Shown: positions 48,886-59,908, counted from the first letter of the stretch. The stretch is 64,000 nt of DNA from Gammaproteobacteria bacterium (GCA_029244925.1 JAQWQE010000029.1:24749-88748); one strand, 5' to 3'. A program made the numbers and translations. Notes: a model not told the origin generated them from the letters alone.

Positions 48886-51255
48886 TTAGAAGCTGTATGT
48901 GGCTTTCACTCCATAATACCTTAAATCAGGAAGACCGCCGGTTAGCACTCTATTCACACTTGGTGGCAAATAGGCAAAATCGATTAAGAACTGATAGTTG
49001 GTAAAAGTTTTATCATTCGTGAGATTCTCTCCAACTAACTCTATACGAAGATTATCTTTTATAATGCCATATCTCATATTTACTCGATTACTAGATCCTG
49101 TTTCAGTGACATTTGCATCGGTGGCATAACTACTGCCAGTGTGAAGAAGATCAGCTCTTAGATACCACTCAGTTCCGTTACTCATTTGCCCATCAAGAGT
49201 TCCTGAGACAGATCGTTGAGTCTTGGGGTTTCTTTGCTTTCTTTTCCCCATTCCACTAATGTCTGATGTTCCCAGAAGAACAGTGCAATCAGCGCAATCT
49301 GTAAGTGTTTTTATTTCAGAATCATTATTGCTTAGCGTTGCCTCTAGTTTAAAGTTGTCTGAAACTGCCCAAGCACCCTCTATTTCATAGCCTGAAAGGT
49401 CAATTTCTCCGCCTGTAGCTGTACCGCCATAAAAGACATCGCCTACAAAAGCGCCTGCTGCCTGTTGTGCTCTCCAGTCTCCTTGATAAACCGCTGCTTG
49501 CATCCAAGCTCTTCCGTCCATTAGTGAGGCTTTGATTCCGAACTCAGTCATTTCTAACTCTTCTTCTTCAATCTCTTTATAAATCCCTGACAAGGCGAGC
49601 TGATCAAGAACAGGTTGTGACTCCCCAAATAAATTAACATTGAAGCCGCCAGGTCTTGTTCCTTCTCCGTAGCTTGCATAAAGTGTTACGTCCTCATTCA
49701 TTTGATAATCAAGAGCAATCCTTGGTGTAGTGCTATTAAAAGTACCTGATACAAACTCTGCTCCGCTTGATCTTGCTTCTTGAACATCATCTTTTTGTCT
49801 TCTGCCTTCTATATTGACAGTTAGATCATCTGTAATATCGTATTCAATTGCGGCGAAAAACCCTGTTGTATCAATATCAAAAACATTGCCAAGGCTTAAT
49901 GATCTGACTGAACTAAAAATATGAAAACCACTGGTTCTCTTTCCCTCAAAGCTAAATTTACTTAGTCCCAATAACCATCTTAATCTTTGGTCTTGTGGAG
50001 AACTTACTCTGATTTCTTGGCTAAAATCTTTTAAATCTCTTCCATTAAGAAGTGAGACATCTCTGAGTGAATCTGGTACATCTGTATTATGTCTTCTATC
50101 AAGATCATCTAATGCCATCCATCGGTTATCATTAGAGGCTGTTATAGAGGTAATACTAATACCACTATCAAGCGACCAATTCATAACCAAACTAGCTTGG
50201 CTAGCCTCTCTAGCAAAACCAAAACCATGAAGAAATGGAACATCAGTAATGGTATCTATGCTGAGGCCTGCTGTAGGGATACCTGTTAATAGGCTTACCT
50301 TATTAGGACTCATTTGAGCATCATATTGAATGTTTGCATCTTGAGGAAACGGTGCTACGCCACAAAACCAATTATTGGTACCGTTTCTTGCTGCCAATGA
50401 TGAGTTAGGTAAATTGCAATTGAAAAGCGCTTCTCCATTGTTAACGCCATAACCAAAAGCTGCGCCCGGACCATCATCGTCTTCCCAGGTGTGATAGCGA
50501 AGCTTTGCATTAAAATTATCGCTTGGTTCAAAATACAAGGTTCCTGCAAAGCTAACTGTCTGTCTTGCTCCAAGTTTTAATGTTGGTGTATTAGCTGCTG
50601 TGTATTGGCCTTCTGTATCTTGTGAGCTAATCGCTATTCGATAGGCTGTTGTATCATTAATAGGGCCTTCTGTAGAGAACCCAAGGTTTGTTGTTCCATA
50701 CTTGCCTACCTCAGCAACTATTTTGCTTTTTGATTCTTGGCCAGGCGTTTTTGTCACATAATTAACAGCCCCTGAAAGAGTTGCTCTACCAAAGTAAGCG
50801 CTTTGCGGGCCTCTAACAATCTCTATTCGTTCTGCGTCTTCAAGACCAGCAATTACACTGCCGTGCATTGGTGCGCCATCAACAAAAACTGTTGCGGCTT
50901 GTTGGTGGTCGTTTTCTTGACTGATATGCATGCCTCTAATGACAAGAATTCTATTGGATCTGTCCGCTCTTCCTACAGAGTGTTCTGCAAAATGAAAGCC
51001 TGGTGTAAATGAAATAATATCTTTGAATTCGCCTATTCCTTTGTCCTCAATGTCATTAGCGCTTAGTGCTGTGATTGCTAGTGGGACATCAAGTATATTC
51101 TCTTCTCTTTTTCTTGCGGTAACTACAATCTCTTCAACCAAAGACGCGCCGTCTTGTGCGATTGTGGTTTCAGAGGTGGTTAAAGTTATACAAAAAGTAG
51201 TTACTAATACTGCTAAATATCCAATTAATGAGTTTTTTAACTTCGTTTTAAACAT
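48886..51255 (-). CDS. TonB-dependent receptor
   Basis: 789 aa. Signal peptide, plug region EEIVVTARKREENILDVPLAITAL, a Gly/Tyr-rich beta-barrel, and a terminal ...ATYSF. Confidence 0.9.
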   Translation of the reverse strand: MFKTKLKNSLIGYLAVLVTTFCITLTTSETTIAQDGASLVEEIVVTARKREENILDVPLAITALSANDIEDKGIGEFKDIISFTPGFHFAEHSVGRADRSNRILVIRGMHISQENDHQQAATVFVDGAPMHGSVIAGLEDAERIEIVRGPQSAYFGRATLSGAVNYVTKTPGQESKSKIVAEVGKYGTTNLGFSTEGPINDTTAYRIAISSQDTEGQYTAANTPTLKLGARQTVSFAGTLYFEPSDNFNAKLRYHTWEDDDGPGAAFGYGVNNGEALFNCNLPNSSLAARNGTNNWFCGVAPFPQDANIQYDAQMSPNKVSLLTGIPTAGLSIDTITDVPFLHGFGFAREASQASLVMNWSLDSGISITSITASNDNRWMALDDLDRRHNTDVPDSLRDVSLLNGRDLKDFSQEIRVSSPQDQRLRWLLGLSKFSFEGKRTSGFHIFSSVRSLSLGNVFDIDTTGFFAAIEYDITDDLTVNIEGRRQKDDVQEARSSGAEFVSGTFNSTTPRIALDYQMNEDVTLYASYGEGTRPGGFNVNLFGESQPVLDQLALSGIYKEIEEEELEMTEFGIKASLMDGRAWMQAAVYQGDWRAQQAAGAFVGDVFYGGTATGGEIDLSGYEIEGAWAVSDNFKLEATLSNNDSEIKTLTDCADCTVLLGTSDISGMGKRKQRNPKTQRSVSGTLDGQMSNGTEWYLRADLLHTGSSYATDANVTETGSSNRVNMRYGIIKDNLRIELVGENLTNDKTFTNYQFLIDFAYLPPSVNRVLTGGLPDLRYYGVKATYSF

Positions 51256-51401
51256 TACAATTCCCCGTTGTTAGTTTGTTGAATAAGGATAGCCTCTATA
51301 GGTAGAGCTCACAAGATAAAAAAAATATGTCCTAATAGTGGACAACCGATAATATTAGAAAAAACTAAAAATTTTGATGTTTGATTTTAGTGCTTTTATC
51401 T

Positions 51402-52643
51402 TTACTTTGTTTTAAGGGTTGGGTAGCTCCCAAGTGACAACATTAAAATACCGCTGATAGCAGACATCATGGCAACAGTTTTTAACACCAATGTATAATT
51501 ACCAAAATAATCAAAAGCCATGCCAAATGCTGCTGGAGCCAAACCCGCACCAATAGAAAAGAATACATAGAGTGCTCCATAAAGTTTTCCATAATCATGG
51601 AGCCCAAAGTACCGGCTCACCAAGAAGGCCAATAAATCCAACTCTGCTCCAGCTGCCAAGCCAACGACAATCATAGCGAGTGAAACCATCGTTATTGAAG
51701 GCATTGCGGTGCTGAAAACATATATTGAAAAAATAGGTGCTGTTAAAAATATTGCTGCTATCAATGGAGCCCAAAAATGATCCACCAAGAAGCCCACGAC
51801 CAGCCTTCCAGAAATCACACTAAGACCTATAAGCCCAGCATATTGTGCTGCTTGCTGTAGTGTTTTTCCCTGATCAATAAGCATTGGAACACTGTTGGTA
51901 ATCAGGCCTGCTATAGCGGCCGCAGCCAAAACCAAAGCGATGCCTATAGCCCAAAAATGATAGCTCATAATTGCCGCCCTAAATGAAATTGACTGCTGTG
52001 TGTTTGTTTCTTTTTGTTCCTTATTTATGCTCTCTTTCGAGTTATTGTTTTTGGACTCAAAAAACAGAAAATAAACGCCCGGGAATCCAATTAATGTAAT
52101 GGTAAGAGCTAGTAGTAAATAGGCTTTTTGCCAACCAAACTCGGTAATCAACCAAGTAACATAAGTTGGAGCAAGGGTTGCAGCAAATCCTGTGCCTGCC
52201 AATGTTATGCCTAATGCTATTCCACGATGTTTATCAAACCAACCGTTTACAACTCGCGTCCAAGTGACAGGCAAAGTGCCTGCCGCCAAAACTGACATGA
52301 TGCTCCATGCAAGATAGTAAGCAGATAGCGATGTGGACAAGAAGTAAAAACTACCCATTGACAACCCATATAATGGAATGGAAATAAGCGCCACTCGACG
52401 AGCTCCAAAACGATCAACCAAAACACCAACAATGGGGGCTGTAATAATGGCCATTAAAATCATAATGCTAACGCCTAGCTGAACATCGCCTCTACTCCAC
52501 CCTGTATTGCTAGAAACACTCACAACAAAAGCGCCATGAGTATAAAAACTAATTGATGACAGGCCACAACCAGCGCCAATCATAGCTCCCATAAGTGGTT
52601 TGAGGCCTGAGAAAAATTCATTATTTTGTGTCATTACTCTCAT
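51402..52643 (-). CDS. MFS transporter
   Basis: 413 aa with about 12 hydrophobic segments and the MFS loop motif GVLVDRFGARR. Confidence 0.85.
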   Translation of the reverse strand: MRVMTQNNEFFSGLKPLMGAMIGAGCGLSSISFYTHGAFVVSVSSNTGWSRGDVQLGVSIMILMAIITAPIVGVLVDRFGARRVALISIPLYGLSMGSFYFLSTSLSAYYLAWSIMSVLAAGTLPVTWTRVVNGWFDKHRGIALGITLAGTGFAATLAPTYVTWLITEFGWQKAYLLLALTITLIGFPGVYFLFFESKNNNSKESINKEQKETNTQQSISFRAAIMSYHFWAIGIALVLAAAAIAGLITNSVPMLIDQGKTLQQAAQYAGLIGLSVISGRLVVGFLVDHFWAPLIAAIFLTAPIFSIYVFSTAMPSITMVSLAMIVVGLAAGAELDLLAFLVSRYFGLHDYGKLYGALYVFFSIGAGLAPAAFGMAFDYFGNYTLVLKTVAMMSAISGILMLSLGSYPTLKTK

Positions 52644-53390
52644 TTAATGTTCAGACATAAGGCTGCCAAACCCTTTTAGTTGATCATTGATATTATTGCT
52701 TCTCAGCGCATGCCAATATGTCGCTGTGTTAATCGCTATGACTGGTTTTGCGAATTCAATTTCAAACTCTTCAACCAAACGCGCCATGGGGAGGTTTGTT
52801 CCAACCTGAACCAGTGCATCAACGCCTTTATTGTTGATTTCCTCCATTTGTTGATGAATCACATTTTTTGGAACCTCGGCAATTTGTGTCCAGCTGGGAC
52901 ATTCTAAGCAAGTGTCTGCAACCACATCAAATCCCATTTCTTCAAAGTAGCGGCGTACCTGTTCATTGGCAGCTGGGAAATAAGGGGATAAAAACCCTAT
53001 TCTTTTCACTCCGCTAAACGCCTTCAACGCTGCTGCGGTTGCATGAGAGCCAATACTTACAGACAGGTTAGATCTGTTTTCAACTTGTTGCTGAAAATCA
53101 TCAGCGCCCTTAACACCGCCATAAAAAGTAATGGCGGACATTCCCATTACCAAATAACTTGGTGAGCAGGTCATTACACTGTCTACCGCATCCAAGACGT
53201 TGCTTGCTATAACAAGTGTTGCGTTCATAAATGATTCGTTGCTGACAGCATTTGCATTGGGGGTTAATATCCGACTGTAATGATTGGTTATCCCGTTAGG
53301 CCTCATGTCATCAAATTCTGGTTGAACAACCGTGTTTGTCGATGGCCCTAAAATGCCAAACAAACCTCTCCAACCCAATATATCGCTCAT
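52644..53390 (-). CDS. Asp/Glu/hydantoin-racemase superfamily protein (maleate isomerase / arylmalonate decarboxylase-like)
   Basis: 248 aa. N-terminus LFGILGPSTNTVVQPEF, and length and pattern typical of the family. Abuts the MFS start codon. Confidence 0.65.
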   Translation of the reverse strand: MSDILGWRGLFGILGPSTNTVVQPEFDDMRPNGITNHYSRILTPNANAVSNESFMNATLVIASNVLDAVDSVMTCSPSYLVMGMSAITFYGGVKGADDFQQQVENRSNLSVSIGSHATAAALKAFSGVKRIGFLSPYFPAANEQVRRYFEEMGFDVVADTCLECPSWTQIAEVPKNVIHQQMEEINNKGVDALVQVGTNLPMARLVEEFEIEFAKPVIAINTATYWHALRSNNINDQLKGFGSLMSEH

Positions 53391-54583
53391 ACTATGTCTC
53401 TCTCTCTTTCAATGCTGCTCGTCATTGATTGTTCTAACATATACGCTCTTCTTTTAGCTTTATTAGCGTGAATAACTCTCATTTCGTCCCACTGGGATTC
53501 AAAGCTTGTTTCGCCGCTTTCTTCTATCATTTTTTTATTTCTAATTGTCTGTCTTTGTATAAAGTCATTCATAACTGCACGCCTCTGCCTATCAAACTGT
53601 CCCAATAAACCTTTGTTGTGTCCATGGTTTATTATTAAACCTAGTTTTTGGGATAAATTCCAAGCATCATGCAGCCCACTATTCATACCTAAACCGCCCA
53701 ATGGGTTATTAAGGTGTGCCGCATCTCCTATAAGAAGGATGCGTTGATGCATCATTTTATCAACAACTCTTTGATGCACCCTATATATAGTTCTGTGTAT
53801 TGTTTCTACTTTTTTTGACTCCCCTAAAACCCTTTGAAAGACTTTGTTTATGTTTTTGTCGGATACAATGTCTGAGTCTTTTATGTCATTTTCAATGGGA
53901 ACTAAAATTCTCCAGGCCGAAGGAGCTTTTAATAAGACAAACCAATCTTTTGGGTCTGAAACATAGTTAACATAAGACAAATCATTAAAATAATTTTCTA
54001 TCTTCTCTTCTGTACTTAAGGTTAAAAACTTCTCTTTGTAGGTGAACCCTGAGAAATCAATTCCCAGCTGTCGCCTTACAATGCTGTTGGCGCCATCAGC
54101 GCCTATCAAATACATTCCTTTATATGTTCTAATGCCATCAGGTGTGTTCACCTCAACACTAGCGCCTGCATCATCTTGACTAACTATTAAAACTTCATGA
54201 TTAAATAAGATTTCTGCATGAGGGTGTTCTTCTAGTTTCTCAGCTAACATTCTTGCAAACTTATATTGTTCGCACTGAAGCCTAAAAGGAAACTCCAGTG
54301 TGTCCTTTAACTCGCCAAGGTTAAAGTCTAATACCTCTTTTGAGGATCGAATGCGATATTGAAAAACAGGAGCTTTTAAACCTTGATTTATCAAGGGTTT
54401 TGCCAAACCCAGTTGCTCTAAATACGACAAAGTAGGTGGATGAAATGTAGAGGCTCGCATATCAGTTTCGCAATGCTCGGCCGACTCTAAAACCAAAACG
54501 TCTATGCCTTGCTCGGCCAGACAAAAGGCAACAAAAGTGCCCACAGGCCCAGCTCCAGCAATAATAATTTGACCTTTCATCAT
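53387..54583 (-). CDS. FAD-dependent aromatic-ring-type monooxygenase
   Basis: 398 aa. IIIAGAGPVGTF (GxGxxG) and LLIGDAAHLNNPLGGLGMNSGLHDAWNL. Confidence 0.85.
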   Translation of the reverse strand: MMKGQIIIAGAGPVGTFVAFCLAEQGIDVLVLESAEHCETDMRASTFHPPTLSYLEQLGLAKPLINQGLKAPVFQYRIRSSKEVLDFNLGELKDTLEFPFRLQCEQYKFARMLAEKLEEHPHAEILFNHEVLIVSQDDAGASVEVNTPDGIRTYKGMYLIGADGANSIVRRQLGIDFSGFTYKEKFLTLSTEEKIENYFNDLSYVNYVSDPKDWFVLLKAPSAWRILVPIENDIKDSDIVSDKNINKVFQRVLGESKKVETIHRTIYRVHQRVVDKMMHQRILLIGDAAHLNNPLGGLGMNSGLHDAWNLSQKLGLIINHGHNKGLLGQFDRQRRAVMNDFIQRQTIRNKKMIEESGETSFESQWDEMRVIHANKAKRRAYMLEQSMTSSIERERDIV

Positions 54584-54689
54584 GGTATTGGTTAATTTTT
54601 ATGGCAAAACTTAAGTCGTTATAATAATGCCTTTTAAGTTATAGCATGTAATTAGAAATTAATAGTTCTTCTTAAATATTATAGATATG

Positions 54690-54703
54690 TTGATACGTAT
54701 CAA
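54690..54703. promoter_or_regulatory. Perfect 14-bp palindrome upstream of the monooxygenase operon (candidate operator)
   Basis: TTGATACGTATCAA is its own reverse complement. It lies 107 bp upstream of the monooxygenase ATG (54583). Confidence 0.3.
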
Positions 54704-54771
54704 TGGATTATCGCTTTTATTCCCAATAGTGGGCAAGAGTAAATCGCTGGTATTTTTAAAAGAAGACCGTC

Positions 54772-55161
54772 TTATAGCTTGCCATCTTCTCTGAGTTTCT
54801 TCCTTATTTTGGTGGCACTAATGGATGTTACCCTTTCATCAAAAACCTCTTCTTCGATAGCATAACCAACGCCTCGACCATAGGTAATATTTACAACATT
54901 GGGCACCAGCATGATTTCATAGTGGGCACCTCTTTGAAAACCATCTTTGCTCAGGCCTTCTTCTATGTTCTTACACACTTGGTCCCAGTCAAACGGATTG
55001 TCGTCTTGCCCGTCACCGCCCGAGGCTCCTCCTACATCTCTGACTTGAATGATCACTTGCCCTGTTTTAGCAAAACATCTTTTAAATAATTCTTGGTGTC
55101 CTTGATGCCATGGCTGCCACCTACCTAGCATTTGTACTGTTGGTTTTTTCCAATCAAACAC
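54772..55161 (-). CDS. Small HxGH nucleotidyltransferase (NadM/cytidylyltransferase-like)
   Basis: 129 aa. GRWQPWHQGH fits the GR.QP.H.GH pattern of NadM-type NMN adenylyltransferases. C-terminal ISATKIR fits the ISSTxxR-type motif. Confidence 0.7.
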   Translation of the reverse strand: MFDWKKPTVQMLGRWQPWHQGHQELFKRCFAKTGQVIIQVRDVGGASGGDGQDDNPFDWDQVCKNIEEGLSKDGFQRGAHYEIMLVPNVVNITYGRGVGYAIEEEVFDERVTSISATKIRKKLREDGKL

Positions 55162-55564
55162 GTTCTAAGATCCTATTAGCGATTGTTGTGTGGTTTGTTT
55201 CATTCCACTCTTTAATATGAAAGTCAACACTGTCTGGGTCTTCAAATATTTTATTGGTGTCTTCAAATCTTCCCTCTTTAATAGTGTCCATAAATATAAC
55301 GATATCGGGCTGGAAAATATCTCTTGTTTCTTTTGTGGGACAGATAAAATCACAAATAACAAACCTTGAATGTGATTTTTCAAAGTCGGCAAACGATTTC
55401 ATTCTAAGGCTCTGTCTGAGTCGACCTTCAGTGCTAAAATCCCAATCATTGGCCATTTTTCTGACTTGGTCTGCGTTGTACCAAGCTGAATGCAATAAGG
55501 GTTGTAACCTTTCTGCTAGATATGTTTTTCCACTGCCGGGCAGTCCCATAATTAGAATTTTCAT
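55154..55564 (-). CDS. P-loop kinase (APS-kinase / AAA_33-like)
   Basis: 136 aa. Walker A GLPGSGKT. NADQVRKMANDWDFSTEGR resembles the APS-kinase D..VR....DLGFS..DR segment. Overlaps the downstream gene by 8 nt. Confidence 0.7.
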   Translation of the reverse strand: MKILIMGLPGSGKTYLAERLQPLLHSAWYNADQVRKMANDWDFSTEGRLRQSLRMKSFADFEKSHSRFVICDFICPTKETRDIFQPDIVIFMDTIKEGRFEDTNKIFEDPDSVDFHIKEWNETNHTTIANRILERV

Positions 55565-55601
55565 AACGGTTTTTCCATAGTAAGCATAGGGTATAACTAT
55601 T

Positions 55602-56549
55602 TTAAATCTTTTTCTCTGTTCTTAAAAACTTGAAAAAACACCACGTAGAAAACGCAGATAAAATATGCCAAATACCATGCGGCTGAATCAAAGAATCTGG
55701 CTGACAGTAAGGTGTGTCTGGAACCCCCTGTAGCCAAATTATAAACGCAAATATATAAGAAAACATGCCCACAAAGAACCAAGGACTGTAGTTTCTTTTT
55801 TTCATGGGGTGGTTTGGCGACAAGGCTGCGGGAAGCCAAAACAAAATTATCCACCAGTATTCGATTAGGTTTGTGAAGATCTCTTGTGGCAAGATTCCAA
55901 AAACAGCTGCAACAAGAAAGCCGATAAAACCAGATGCCCACCTAAAGACGGGGGACCAGAAGCGAAACAGTGTTTCGGAAATAATCCACAATGCAATGGA
56001 GGTTCCAAACAGATCAAACCCAATACCAAGACTAGAGCCAAAAAACCAACTCAGCCCAGCAAAAGAAACAATGACTAATGTATATGTTTTAAAAAATTGT
56101 TGCTCGCTCCACCGACCCATTGCACTGACATTGATAAGCCAAGGCAGTGTGATGTAAACAACCATGCTGACATTATCAATCCACTGACCCCAATAAGTAT
56201 GTGTGCCGTGCATAAGCATAGAGCCTGGACCTAAAAAAAGAGCTGCCCCAGCATAAAGCTTTGCTATAGGTGTTAGCCCATGAAATTGATTGCTGTGTTG
56301 GGGCTTCTCCCCATCTTTGGTTAAAACAAAAAACATGCACAGACCTGCAAACATAAAGCCTAGATTTGATAGGGCGTTTACTGGCTCTCTAAAAATACCA
56401 TCACTGACTCTTTCACACCATCGAGATAAACCCCCAACCGTCATCCCTGGCTCCAAGGAAACCATATTGGTTAAAAAACCCAATAAAACATATGCCCCCA
56501 AAAAGACAGCGGACAGAGTTAGCGCAAGGTGAAATGGTTTCTGGTGCAT
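55602..56549 (-). CDS. Alkaline-ceramidase-like (CREST superfamily) 7-TM membrane hydrolase
   Basis: 315 aa and polytopic. WCERVSDGIFREPVNALSNLGFMF resembles the ceramidase N-terminal WCE...AE..NT.SN motif. Also MHGTHTYWGQWIDNVSM and a C-terminal H-x3-H (PHGIWHILSA). Confidence 0.6.
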   Translation of the reverse strand: MHQKPFHLALTLSAVFLGAYVLLGFLTNMVSLEPGMTVGGLSRWCERVSDGIFREPVNALSNLGFMFAGLCMFFVLTKDGEKPQHSNQFHGLTPIAKLYAGAALFLGPGSMLMHGTHTYWGQWIDNVSMVVYITLPWLINVSAMGRWSEQQFFKTYTLVIVSFAGLSWFFGSSLGIGFDLFGTSIALWIISETLFRFWSPVFRWASGFIGFLVAAVFGILPQEIFTNLIEYWWIILFWLPAALSPNHPMKKRNYSPWFFVGMFSYIFAFIIWLQGVPDTPYCQPDSLIQPHGIWHILSAFSTWCFFKFLRTEKKI

Positions 56550-56636
56550 ATAGGTTTTTATTTTCTCATATTTTCAATTAAACATAAAAAAACCAGCTAT
56601 TGATTAAAATAGATGGTTTTTATTTAATAATGAATT

Positions 56637-57350
56637 TTATTGTTCAGCAGAATAAAAAAGCTGGCATGATTCATATGTGTCTCTCACAACTTTATCAATA
56701 AGTGAGGATGCTTTAAGGTATTGTTGCCCCCATTCTGCGCCTGCAAAATACTCGTCTATCAGCCTGCCTGCCTCACTAGAGTTTGGAGAGACTCCTCGCA
56801 ATAAAAAAGTTCCTGTTTCATGAACACCTCCACCAAGCGGTTGGAAAACACCCATATTAAAATCATGGCCTGCATTTCTAATTGCTGCTTCTAACTTTGT
56901 TGCTGCAGCGATATAAGCGGGAACGTTTTCAGGTTTAATTTTTACACGTGTCACTCTTTCAAAGCCAGGGCTTAAAACAAATGGCTTTAGCGGCTTCCAT
57001 GCCACTCTATACTTAAGGGTTCTGAGTTTTGCCAATTCTTTTGATACTTCATCAAGGTCATAAGCTGTGGTTTCTTCCATGGCCCCTGTTACAGTAGAAT
57101 GGGCGCTCCAAACGAACATTTCTCCATTATAATCTTGGCCTGTTATGGTTACGCAAACACCGGCGGCGGCGGCATCAAATCCCCTAAAAAGCTCTGGGTT
57201 ATTTTTTAAATGCTTAATGTAGGCTGAGACGTCTGGTGCCTGAACCATAACCGTTGTAAAACTTCCTTCGCCAGGTCCAGAAAGATTATGGCCATCCGCA
57301 AAGGCGTAAAAGGGTAAGATTACAACCATGGATAAAATAAATTTCTTCAT
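56637..57350 (-). CDS. Secreted protein of unknown function with an internal duplication
   Basis: 237 aa. Signal peptide MKKFILSMVVILPFYAFA. Two ~100-aa halves share ...V.V.APDVSAYI... / ...VKIKPENVPAYI... and following G-rich strands. Confidence 0.5.
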   Translation of the reverse strand: MKKFILSMVVILPFYAFADGHNLSGPGEGSFTTVMVQAPDVSAYIKHLKNNPELFRGFDAAAAGVCVTITGQDYNGEMFVWSAHSTVTGAMEETTAYDLDEVSKELAKLRTLKYRVAWKPLKPFVLSPGFERVTRVKIKPENVPAYIAAATKLEAAIRNAGHDFNMGVFQPLGGGVHETGTFLLRGVSPNSSEAGRLIDEYFAGAEWGQQYLKASSLIDKVVRDTYESCQLFYSAEQ

Positions 57351-57420
57351 ATTGCTTCCTTATTTTTTATAATGTCATTATTAAATCATAGCGACATAAA
57401 AAATTCTTAAAAAGAATTTC

Positions 57421-58173
57421 TTGAGTGCTGGGCAGGTAACCAAAAACAATGCAGTCACACAATTAAAATCTATCATGAGGCAAATAATAGCTATAGGGGG
57501 TGGTGGTTTTGGCAGAACAACAAAATCAAAACTAATAGAAAATTATATTTTAAGACAATCGCCTGAAAAAAAGCCGAGTATTTGCTTTATCCCAACAGCT
57601 ACAGGTGATGCTGACCCCTATATTGAGAGCTTTTATGCTGTTTTCTCACAACTAAATTGTGTTCCTAGTCATATCGGTCTTTTTAAACGTACCATCAATC
57701 TTGAAGCTCATATTGAGAAGCAGAACATTGTGTTTGTTGGTGGTGGAAACACTAAAAGCATGTTGGCAGTATGGAAAGCTTGGGGCCTAGATAAAATTCT
57801 TAGGCGTGCCTATAAGAGAGGTGTTGTGATGTCTGGAGTGAGTGCTGGAGCAATCTGTTGGTTTGAAAATGGTTTAACTGACTCTTGGGAAGAGGGGTTA
57901 AAGCTCATGCCTTGCTTGGGTTTTGCTCCAGGTAGTTGTGCGCCTCATTATGATGAGGAGCCTGAAAGAAGGCCGGCAACAAAGCAGCTGCTTATCGGTG
58001 GTCGTATTTCTTCTATGTATGGAATTGAGGGTGGTGCTGCGCTTCATTTTATAAATGAAAAACCCATTAAAGCCGTTCAGTTTGAGAAAGAAAAACGCTC
58101 CTACCTAGTAACCCTTAAAAGCAATAAAACAAGTGACGAAAAACCACTTAGTCCTGAAAAAATAATTTACTAG
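57421..58173 (+). CDS. Peptidase S51 (dipeptidase E / cyanophycinase-like)
   Basis: 250 aa with a TTG start; the alternative is Met19 at 57475 (MRQIIAIGGGGF). VFVGGGNT and the nucleophile region MSGVSAGAICW. Confidence 0.75.
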   Translation: MSAGQVTKNNAVTQLKSIMRQIIAIGGGGFGRTTKSKLIENYILRQSPEKKPSICFIPTATGDADPYIESFYAVFSQLNCVPSHIGLFKRTINLEAHIEKQNIVFVGGGNTKSMLAVWKAWGLDKILRRAYKRGVVMSGVSAGAICWFENGLTDSWEEGLKLMPCLGFAPGSCAPHYDEEPERRPATKQLLIGGRISSMYGIEGGAALHFINEKPIKAVQFEKEKRSYLVTLKSNKTSDEKPLSPEKIIY

Positions 58174-59074: not shown

Positions 59075-59908
59075 TTATCTTTTAGTATTTGGCGGTCCAA
59101 AAAAACAATATAAGCTCTCATTAAGGTATTGAGCCTCTCTAATGTCTTCTATTATTTCTTGCCAAGCCATAAAGGTTATTTTTACTGGGTTAAAGGTATT
59201 AACATTGCTTACCAAGCCATATTTTACAGGTTCTTTTTCTGGCTCAAATGTCCCAAACAACCGATCCCAAATGATAAATAAGTTTCCATAGTTTTTGTCG
59301 ATATAGGTTTCGTTTGCTCCATGGTGAACTCTATGATGGGACGGGGTATTAAAAACCCACTCTAGCGGTCCAAGTCTTCCAATGATTTGTGTGTGCCCAA
59401 CTATCCCCCATAAAGTGCTGACTACTCCGGCAACAGCTATAACTGTTGGGTCCAACCCAATTAATGGAAGCGCCATAAAGAAGGGAAGCTTGGCGACAGG
59501 ACCAAACCATGCTTGCCTAAAAGAAACCGCAAAATTCATCTCTTCGCTTGAGTGATGGCTCATATGAATTGCCCAAAGAAACCTGGTTCGATGCGACAGC
59601 CTATGAAAAAAATAAAATATAAAATCTATAGAAATAAAAGCTATGGTCCAGATAGCCCAAGTGGGTACAAAGGCGTTTAGGTCGAAAACCCTAAATTGGT
59701 ATAAATAAAAATGAAAGGCTAGTGTTGCCCCTTTTATTGCAAAAACCATAACAATGTTTCCAGCCAAAAGTCCGACTGTACATAAAGTGTCTTGTTTTTT
59801 ATAAAGGCCTTTGTTTTGCCAATTTGAAAGCAAGGCTTCGATAAAAATCATGCCCAAAACAATAGGAGCACCAATAAAATATGCCTGTGTGACGGTTAGT
59901 TCTGTCAT
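59075..59908 (-). CDS. Fatty acid hydroxylase / sterol desaturase superfamily membrane protein
   Basis: 277 aa. Three His boxes: HRLSHR, HMSHHSS and HHRVHH. Confidence 0.85.
   Translation of the reverse strand: MTELTVTQAYFIGAPIVLGMIFIEALLSNWQNKGLYKKQDTLCTVGLLAGNIVMVFAIKGATLAFHFYLYQFRVFDLNAFVPTWAIWTIAFISIDFIFYFFHRLSHRTRFLWAIHMSHHSSEEMNFAVSFRQAWFGPVAKLPFFMALPLIGLDPTVIAVAGVVSTLWGIVGHTQIIGRLGPLEWVFNTPSHHRVHHGANETYIDKNYGNLFIIWDRLFGTFEPEKEPVKYGLVSNVNTFNPVKITFMAWQEIIEDIREAQYLNESLYCFFGPPNTKR

Follow-up and report, generated by a model that had tools for sequence, protein, structure and literature searches.

Does a tight run of four genes that includes a bacterial relative of the alkaline ceramidases encode a single route of lipid salvage, or have independent genes come to lie side by side? 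The question is raised by a cluster in a 64,000-nucleotide stretch of DNA from Gammaproteobacteria bacterium (GCA_029244925.1 JAQWQE010000029.1:24749-88748), here called the window, whose positions are counted from its first letter. The cluster encodes, in order of transcription, a secreted protein of 237 amino acids (aa) named sec_237, a 315-aa ceramidase-like membrane hydrolase, a P-loop kinase and a nucleotidyltransferase (NTase). In an earlier reading of this DNA (the original prediction), the four were thought to form one pathway in which sec_237 presents an exogenous sphingolipid, the hydrolase frees a base or alcohol from it, and the kinase and the NTase activate that product by phosphorylation and by CDP or AMP transfer. 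Our analysis favors, with a probability of roughly 0.78, a lineage-specific juxtaposition of three independent units, namely the hydrolase, the kinase–NTase pair (referred to as the module) and sec_237, whereas a single salvage pathway appears very improbable.

Conservation of the four-gene order

Conservation was judged by adjacency in the flanks of loci anchored on the hydrolase, on the module and on sec_237. For the hydrolase, one genome per species was surveyed, at least 186 species had relatives, and the best 80 loci were searched by tblastn with the window proteins over up to 8 kb on each side (less at contig ends). These 80 loci belong to SAR86, Pseudomonadales (OM182, HTCC2089), Woeseia, other Gammaproteobacteria, PS1/OCS116/Rhodobiaceae Alphaproteobacteria, SAR202/Dehalococcoidia, Acidimicrobiia and Acidobacteria, and marine Gammaproteobacteria (SAR86, Pseudomonadales, Woeseia and others) make up about two-thirds of them. 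Their hydrolases are 53–66% identical to that of the window, with one metagenome-assembled genome at 92% (L011, 'Gammaproteobacteria bacterium cluster2_bin.70'). The family had been described as rare in Gammaproteobacteria, a view that does not hold, given relatives in at least 186 reference species, mostly of marine Gammaproteobacteria.

Among the 80 reference-genome loci, the kinase and the NTase lie beside the hydrolase only in the 92%-identical genome, to which a metagenome contig with an 82%-identical hydrolase (L010) can be added; the 78 other hydrolase loci contain neither gene. The complete four-gene order was found in L010, L011, L101-L105, L106-L112 and L125, whose hydrolases are 81–98% identical, and these loci constitute a single narrow clade of uncultured marine Gammaproteobacteria. 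A salvage pathway would draw support from the order being kept in all close relatives sampled and from the tight, co-directional spacing of the genes with their 8-nt overlap. Against it, the four genes occur together only in these very close relatives, so that the comparison of gene order proposed in the original prediction effectively speaks against the pathway it was meant to check.

The membrane protein as a probable bacterial hydrolase of the ceramidase family

Members of the CREST superfamily are defined by seven core transmembrane helices (TMs) with an SxxxH motif where TM2 ends, an Asp where TM3 begins and an HxxxH motif where TM7 begins (PMC3146951). The catalytic set of ACER3 comprises S77, H81, D92, H217 and H221; mutation of any His or Asp abolishes activity, and S77A leaves 0.17% (PMC9436119). 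Features specific to the ACER enzymes are a calcium site, formed by D19-W-C-E-x-N24 and A-E33-F, and a disulfide between C21 and C196 of TM6 (PMC6303388).

The 315-aa protein matches the Pfam Ceramidase profile PF05875 with 53.5 bits (E 3e-14), well above the gathering score of 32.5, and residues 44–309 align with profile positions 9–230 of 259; this was the search by which the ceramidase assignment was to be checked. A large protein collection contains 1732 homologs, the best 120 of which are 58–96% identical and all carry PF05875. In an alignment of 19 homologs with 58–82% identity, S110, H114, D125, H291 and H295 are invariant, as are W44-C45-E46, E55, N58, S61 and N62. The motifs read R43-W44-C45-E46, F53-R-E55-P-V-N58-A-L-S61-N62-L-G-F and H291-x3-H295, and thus include the WCE motif and the terminal H-x3-H that had been quoted for this protein. 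Among the eukaryotic alkaline ceramidases (ACER1-3, yeast Ypc1/Ydc1; PF05875), ACER3 (6G7O) has the same spacings from S to H (4), H to D (11) and H to H (4), and the window protein also retains the W-C-E loop and an equivalent of E33.

The AlphaFold (AF2) model of the hydrolase, with a predicted local distance difference test score (pLDDT) of 79 and a predicted TM-score (pTM) of 0.82, contains about 10 helices, including an extra N-terminal one (residues 4–26), and places SxxxH at the end of helix 94–116, D125 at the start of helix 119–145 and HxxxH at the start of helix 290–309. The model displays the seven-TM core fold common to ACER3, AdipoR and SID-1. In a Foldseek search of the PDB, ranks 1–22 were occupied by CREST structures only (SIDT2, SID-1, SIDT1, AdipoR1 and ACER3 6g7o), and AdipoR2 and Myomaker followed at lower ranks with G-protein-coupled receptors interspersed; the scores were modest (TM-score 0.4–0.55). 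Neither phmmer nor a profile of the 19 sequences found ACER3 or AdipoR among the PDB sequences, and the 315-aa protein is therefore a distant family member whose CREST membership, for want of a direct sequence link to ACER3, rests on the Pfam match, the motifs and the fold search. With a Pfam score above the cutoff, five invariant catalytic residues and CREST proteins as the top fold matches, the original assignment is upheld, and within the CREST superfamily this bacterial protein truly belongs to the alkaline-ceramidase branch.

The protein also departs from the ACER enzymes in several respects. A structural alignment with ACER3 gives about 16% identity, and the window protein has, in addition to the extra N-terminal TM, what are probably two further helices in the stretch from TM5 to TM7. 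Its invariant cysteines are C45, C282 and C304, none of which lies within the TM6-equivalent helix, and the disulfide would probably be completed not by a TM6 cysteine but by C282 of the loop that leads into TM7. At the calcium site, W, C, E and E55, which corresponds to E33, persist, and the positions of D19 and N24 are taken by R43 and V48, the latter invariant; judged from these residues, the ACER-type site appears to be partly kept, and calcium binding may be absent.

These replacements of D19 and N24, the ranking of SIDT/SID-1 and not ACER3 at the top of the Foldseek list, and the great diversity of functions reported for CREST proteins (PMC3146951) would all suit a protein that is not a hydrolase, for example a PAQR-type receptor, a hemolysin-III-like pore or a transporter. 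We consider such a function improbable: the five residues essential in ACER3 (PMC9436119) are all invariant, the Pfam match is to Ceramidase and not to HlyIII, and lipid-hydrolase activity has been reported for SIDT2 itself (PMC10272179). The 315-aa protein, which belongs to a known bacterial group, is best read as a probable zinc lipid amidase whose active site would be turned to the periplasm.

The orientation was predicted from charge. Across the family, segments rich in Lys and Arg are found at the N-terminus, at the start of helix 149–170, in loop 243–255 (net +2.3) and at the C-terminus, and they alternate with acidic loops, among them the WCE/C45 loop (net −1.5) and the C282 loop (net −1.4). 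Because of this positive-inside pattern and the extra N-terminal helix, both termini are predicted to be cytoplasmic and the WCE loop, SxxxH, D125, C282 and HxxxH to be periplasmic, an arrangement compatible with a C45–C282 disulfide. The predicted orientation is opposite to that of ACER3, whose active site faces the cytoplasm. Since the catalytic motifs are predicted to be periplasmic, the substrate would probably be drawn from the outer leaflet of the inner membrane or from outside. A periplasmic hydrolase site and a cytoplasmic module would act on opposite sides of the membrane, a further point against the four-gene salvage pathway, even though the hydrolase on which that pathway was built is a genuine ceramidase-family member.

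Uncharacterized bacterial groups beside the alkaline ceramidases were described in 2011 and flagged for testing, and no bacterial member of this family group had been assayed (PMC3146951); our literature search for a characterized bacterial PF05875 enzyme found none. The window hydrolase resembles the 'hypothetical groups 1 and 2' of that study in being a proteobacterial protein with a seven-TM core, in clustering with the alkaline ceramidases and in having uninformative gene neighborhoods (PMC3146951). It differs in that the family is far more widespread in SAR86, PS1, OCS116, SAR202, Woeseia and Acidimicrobiia than was known in 2011. On sequence grounds, the hydrolase is a new member of a known bacterial CREST group.

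No universal neighbor of the hydrolase gene was found among 1078 clustered open reading frames (ORFs) from the 80 loci, the best families being present in at most 16 loci. The commonest neighbors, which follow lineage synteny, were enoyl-CoA hydratase, a SAR86 lipoprotein, GST-like and beta-lactamase-like proteins, HMGCS/DUF35-like proteins with thiolase, and TonB receptors, and contigs with 60–65%-identical hydrolases have a conserved neighborhood of their own, different from that of the window, with Rieske oxygenase, methyltransferase and DoxX genes on the upstream side and genes for a 484-aa ACP_syn_III_C/ChsH2-OB protein and a thiolase on the downstream side. In the Alphaproteobacteria (L001-L009, L012-L017, L021, L022, L028), the ceramidase-like gene precedes, on the same strand, a gene for this single 484-aa protein, which combines ACP_syn_III_C with a ChsH2-type OB fold (HMG-CoA-synthase/DUF35-like), and a thiolase gene; upstream, the same loci carry genes for a Rieske oxygenase, a methyltransferase, DoxX and a HugZ-like PNPOx/DUF2470 protein, conserved across lineages. 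A PF00144 beta-lactamase-family serine hydrolase (408–422 aa, with signal peptide) adjoins the ceramidase-like gene in about 10 gammaproteobacterial loci, 19 nt downstream of it in L032, L042, L044, L047, L068, L072 and L079, and also in L059 (5917-7143), L057 and L041. A GST-like 341-aa gene was seen nearby in eight loci.

The kinase and nucleotidyltransferase as an autonomous module

The kinase and the NTase had been assigned to families that prove right in kind. The kinase matches APS_kinase PF01583 with 29.4 bits (E 1e-6; cutoff 21.1), AAA_28 reaching only E 0.004, and its profile retrieved 2yvu first from the PDB (E 1.2e-11), followed by about 20 other kinases of adenosine 5'-phosphosulfate (APS). 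Only residues 3–85 align with APS kinases, the protein having 136 aa versus 175–210 aa, and curated CysC models score far below their cutoffs (TIGR00455, 26.3 vs 138.7; PRK05541, 31.3 vs 127). Its sequence is that of an APS-kinase-like protein, not of CysC, with a shortened C-terminal (lid) region. In the NTase, the motifs G13-R-x-Q-P-x-H19-x-G-H22 (HxGH) and I114-S-A-T-x-I-R120 (ISxTxxR) are invariant, and the profile matches only adenylyltransferases of nicotinamide mononucleotide (NMN), or NMNATs, in the PDB (1f9a, E 2.6e-7; 4yp7; NadM 2qjt/2qjo), in an alignment that stops at about residue 87, short of the NMN-binding segment. The NTase scores 30.5 vs 127 for PRK01153 and 26 vs 181 for TIGR01527, and no curated NCBIfam model came near its cutoff for the split or the fused module.

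The likeness of the kinase to APS kinase and of the NTase to the archaeal/NadM-type NMNATs makes a nucleotide-type molecule, and not a lipid base, the probable substrate of the module. Kinase residues D32-x-x-R35, F43 and R48 fall where, as we take it, APS kinases contact the adenine and phosphosulfate parts of APS. These positions would fit an AMP-X substrate, with the NTase acting first and 3'-phosphorylation following, as in the synthesis of 3'-phosphoadenosine 5'-phosphosulfate (PAPS) and coenzyme A (CoA). The same resemblance is at odds with the notion that the pair activates a released base or alcohol; it also counts against a salvage pathway of that kind that neither enzyme is of the choline/ethanolamine-kinase or LicC/PCYT type.

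The module is not tied to the hydrolase. Homologs of the NTase number at least 8000, with the top 120 being 81–98% identical and variously labeled 'cytidyltransferase', 'ATP sulfurylase' or 'phosphopantetheine adenylyltransferase'. In three other contexts, none of which includes a ceramidase-like gene, copies that are 82–88% identical form the same pair of 136-aa and 129/130-aa proteins, again overlapping by 8 nt. The pair follows a 233-aa multi-TM gene and precedes psiE in L091-95 and L192-193; it follows a 365-aa soluble gene, with arsC in convergent orientation, in L096-100 and L190-191; and in L188-189, within a polysaccharide cluster, it comes after a KpsF-like SIS-CBS gene. The start codon of the NTase overlaps the stop codon of the kinase (GTGTTTGA), and the junction (A/G)TGTTTGA, with its start/stop overlap ATGTTTGA, is conserved at the DNA level in the four contexts.

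The two genes also exist as one. The kinase and the NTase match complementary halves of phrog_10255, at positions 2–115 (E 2.5e-29) and 124–228 (E 2.9e-19), respectively, and tblastn located the NTase in 12 phage records (Xylella, Xanthomonas, Stenotrophomonas, Clavibacter). In gp35 of Xylella phage Sano (245 aa; L186 5593-6330), residues 4–122 match the kinase (44% identity, E 1e-40) and residues 137–242 match the NTase (41% identity, E 6e-24). An exhaustive search of 50%-identity representatives returned 1037 clusters, 414 of them at E ≤ 1e-10, and all six tested among the relatives of 260–277 aa were fusions of APS_kinase and CTP_transf_like; a literature search for such a kinase–NTase fusion found none. 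Since the pair recurs in other contexts and is fused in phages, which lack the hydrolase, and in metagenomes, the kinase and the NTase form one functional, translationally coupled unit that is independent of the hydrolase.

Two known types of system invite comparison, and NadR is the closest characterized analog in composition. Phage NARP3 Bas30_86 carries a NadR-like NMNAT followed by a ribosylnicotinamide kinase (RNK), with PnuC (PMC13464706). The module shares with NadR and NARP3 a P-loop kinase and an NMNAT-type HxGH NTase that act in sequence on one substrate, an occurrence in bacteria as well as phages, and a fused form. It differs from them in its order, kinase then NTase, in a kinase of the APS-kinase family and not RNK (AAA_28), and in the length of the NTase (129 vs ~170 aa); moreover, unlike NadR, it has no PnuC beside it in any of the four contexts, and NadR models match only at the P-loop. 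APS kinase (CysC) with ATP sulfurylase, and phosphopantetheine adenylyltransferase with dephospho-CoA kinase, offer a parallel in which AMP-X, the product of an HxGH-superfamily adenylyltransferase, receives a phosphate on the 3'-OH of its adenosine from a P-loop kinase. Here the differences are that the module NTase is unlike ATP sulfurylase in size and sequence and that CysC models reach 26–31 bits, compared with cutoffs of 127–163.

The genes preceding the module in two of its other contexts were considered as hidden CREST relatives and rejected: the 233-aa protein has multiple TMs and matches GPDPase_memb weakly, the soluble 365-aa protein bears a weak likeness to methyltransferases, and both are unrelated to the hydrolase. 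Three NTase relatives, P0330 (281 aa), P0338 (244 aa) and P0324 (190 aa), were seen joined to other fragments. The fused partners were fragments of chorismate synthase or 3-dehydroquinate synthase, both enzymes of the shikimate pathway, and another relative carries a DUF2061 membrane domain; the joins to shikimate enzymes are probably gene-call read-through on short contigs.

The secreted protein and its companion family

A typical Sec signal peptide (MKKFILSMVVILPFYAFA, followed by DGH) is present on sec_237, and residues 1–26 have a pLDDT below 50 in an AF2 model that otherwise scores well (pLDDT 86, pTM 0.80) and consists of two tandem beta-alpha-beta-beta-alpha-beta units. The proposed duplicated domain is therefore seen in the predicted structure, but no internal repeat was detected in the sequence, where the N-terminal and C-terminal halves align with an hhalign probability of 4.7%. 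There were no Pfam, NCBIfam or PHROG matches, and the 58 homologs, in which C66 and C229 are invariant, are all unnamed or 'hypothetical'. Foldseek placed 2pgc, an uncharacterized marine-metagenome protein, first (E 6e-9, TM-score 0.62–0.72), with tandem ABM-type monooxygenases, sulfur oxygenase reductase (SOR), ChdC/Cld and PenE lower down at 7–15% identity. The likeness of sec_237 to 2PGC, 3MCS, 3F44, SOR, ChdC/Cld and PenE lies in the tandem ferredoxin-like fold (E 6e-9 to 1e-5, TM-score 0.5–0.7); in contrast to the 2PGC-type proteins, with which its identity is 7–15%, sec_237 is secreted and has the invariant cysteine pair. On the model, sec_237 would be a secreted periplasmic tandem ferredoxin-like protein of the dimeric alpha+beta barrel type. 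A role in presenting lipid finds no backing in this fold, which is enzyme-like and whose structural matches give no sign of lipid binding.

Could sec_237 nevertheless work with the hydrolase as a pair, binding or oxidizing a hydrophobic product or delivering the substrate, with the module unrelated to both? The periplasm is the predicted place of action of the two proteins, and homologs of sec_237 (34–42% identical) lie on the same strand 58–84 nt from the hydrolase in SAR86 L059, where they are upstream, and in OCS116 L017/L021, where they are downstream. The order is beta-lactamase-like, sec_237, hydrolase in L059 and cyclase, hydrolase, sec_237, 484-aa protein, thiolase in OCS116, and in PS1 (L018/19/23) the homolog is about 6.7 kb from the hydrolase. 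Overall, however, only 7 of the 80 hydrolase loci contain a sec_237 homolog (6/78 outside the window clade), and in a metagenome scan of 80 loci anchored on sec_237 the hydrolase was present only in nine, at 90% identity or more. The flanks of the 71 sec_237 loci at 40–85% identity contained no hydrolase, kinase or NTase.

The usual neighbors of sec_237 are instead a second secreted family (sec2), a His-rich 192-aa secreted protein and a PhzF-like protein. Proteins of the sec2 family have about 236 aa, carry the motifs NPPxVVxAMDxF...SDC...GDWTxD...PIKAW and often occur in 1–3 tandem copies. Their genes lie about 45 nt downstream of the hydrolase gene, convergent with it, in 14 SAR86 loci (L060-L066, L070, L074, L077, L078, L083-L085). 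They also lie downstream of sec_237 homologs in 17 metagenome loci overall, at about 36–700 nt in L129-L132, L156-L158, L163, L164, L171-L174 and L180 and at about 4 kb in L146, L152 and L155. This double proximity speaks for a sec_237–hydrolase pair. Against the pair, sec2 and sec_237 are not demonstrably homologous: hmmsearch found nothing, and hhalign gave 42–52% probability, partly from the signal peptide. No PDB or Pfam match was found for sec2. The pairing is weakened further by the position of the PS1 homolog behind an operon of heme-uptake type and by fold neighbors that are enzymes of varied chemistry. We accordingly hold a working pair of sec_237 and hydrolase to be possible, with odds of perhaps one in four, and a loose link between the hydrolase and the periplasmic sec_237/sec2 group, in any case not a rule, to be about equally doubtful.

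The contexts of sec_237 homologs include two further arrangements. In loci of the L113-L125 type (e.g. L121 6764-7342, 5130-5915), homologs at 76–85% identity occur in another conserved context, with a PhzF-like 261-aa gene upstream and, 47 nt downstream, the 192-aa secreted protein with its His-rich N-terminus (SSHSHSHDDSDHKH); this hints at a periplasmic set for handling metals or small molecules. In PS1 L019 9895-16375 (also in L018 and L023, and partly in L013), genes for a TonB-dependent receptor, Peripla_BP_2, FecCD, an ATP-binding cassette ATPase and a HugZ-like protein are followed 70 nt later by the sec_237 homolog. Heme handling was considered as a general association of sec_237, for which this operon and the ChdC/Cld matches are suggestive, and was rejected, as heme-type genes were found at 0/80 sec_237 loci.

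Locus layout, transcription and flanking genes

The ORF listing agrees exactly with the four co-directional minus-strand genes originally described (Table 1), which span 54772-57350 and are separated by an 87-nt gap, a 37-nt gap and then the 8-nt overlap. The GC content of the cluster region is 38–43% throughout, and its base composition is unremarkable. An Rfam scan of the whole window gave no RNA family matches, and a scan of 54400-57600 for promoter and terminator consensus sequences gave counts at chance level. A terminator-like structure was looked for in the 37-nt gap between hydrolase and kinase, and none was seen; given this gap without a terminator, the module is probably transcribed along with the hydrolase gene in the window clade. 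In every context, the module lies 2–160 nt behind an unrelated co-directional gene, which suggests that it commonly rides on the transcript of its neighbor. The tight spacing seen here is weak evidence for a shared function, because the module sits equally behind unrelated genes elsewhere.

Table 1. Genes of the cluster and features flanking it in the window
Feature	Position	Strand	Remark
sec_237, 237-aa secreted protein	57350-56637	minus	ATG start (ORF listing)
Ceramidase-like hydrolase, 315-aa CREST membrane protein	56549-55602	minus	ATG start (ORF listing)
P-loop kinase, APS-kinase type, 136 aa	55564-55154	minus	ATG start; module gene 1
HxGH nucleotidyltransferase (NTase), 129 aa	55161-54772	minus	GTG start; module gene 2
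Fatty-acid-hydroxylase-superfamily membrane protein	59075-59908		1.7 kb upstream of cluster; PF04116, E 5e-31; weak OlsE-like match
Apparent separate catabolic unit	48886-54583	minus	directly downstream of cluster

Homologs of the upstream fatty-acid hydroxylase (27–35% identity) occur within 1–7 kb of the ceramidase-like gene in L040, L044, L046, L058 and L081. The catabolic unit comprises genes for a flavin-dependent (FAD) aromatic-type monooxygenase (398 aa), an Amdase-family protein (248 aa), an MFS transporter (413 aa) and a 789-aa ORF; the Amdase-family name derives from precomputed Pfam matches on syntenic relatives. In L101-L105, a 789-aa TonB-dependent receptor occupies the position of the 789-aa ORF, and the unit is kept alongside the cluster in close relatives only.

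Discussion

The restriction of the four-gene order to one clade, the absence of the kinase and the NTase from all other hydrolase loci examined and the autonomy of the module lead us to set aside the four-gene pathway in favor of three independent units. The first would be a zinc-dependent intramembrane hydrolase facing the periplasm that cleaves the amide (or ester) of an acyl lipid into a fatty acid and an amine or alcohol head; by analogy with ACER3, the zinc would be coordinated by H114, H291 and H295, with D125 activating water and S110 stabilizing the oxyanion. The second, the module, would phosphorylate and nucleotidylate one cytoplasmic small molecule of nucleotide or cofactor type, whether in a NadR-like conversion of nicotinamide riboside to NAD or by adenylylation and then 3'-phosphorylation, as in PAPS or CoA synthesis. 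The third would be the periplasmic sec_237, with its tandem ferredoxin-like fold, tied to the hydrolase loosely at most.

Several points weigh against this division. The tight co-directional genes without a terminator may well be co-transcribed, and hence some clade-specific functional coupling may exist. Homologs of sec_237 adjoin the hydrolase in three distant lineages and in two orders, which is more than chance predicts, and sec2 links to both the hydrolase gene and sec_237. Finally, the substrate and topology of the hydrolase and the reaction of the module are all things that we infer.

A narrower form of cooperation can also be conceived, in which the hydrolase and the module, in this clade alone, share a transcript and cooperate in salvaging the head groups of exogenous (e.g. 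algal or viral) sphingolipids after import. We rate it as very unlikely; if true, it would be a bacterial lipid-head-group route without a described counterpart. It is more likely that the module itself represents an uncharacterized and very widespread two-step pathway for a nucleotide-type metabolite (at least 8000 sequences), carried by phages as a fusion.

With the four-gene system not upheld, its direct importance is low, and the significance of the locus lies in its parts. In SAR86, PS1, OCS116 and SAR202, the most abundant oligotrophic marine bacteria, CREST proteins of the ceramidase family occur commonly, are strongly conserved, with ~60% identity between phyla, and probably have an active site facing the periplasm; if they hydrolyze ceramide-like lipids, they would provide a route in the ocean for the turnover of algal and bacterial sphingolipids. 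The module, though outside the original claim, is of greater interest than the hydrolase. Its APS-kinase-like and NMNAT-like enzymes, two proteins in bacteria and a single one in phages, make up a very large and highly conserved unit that has no name and whose product could reveal a new step in the salvage or modification of nucleotide cofactors, with possible relevance to the conflict between phage and host over NAD.

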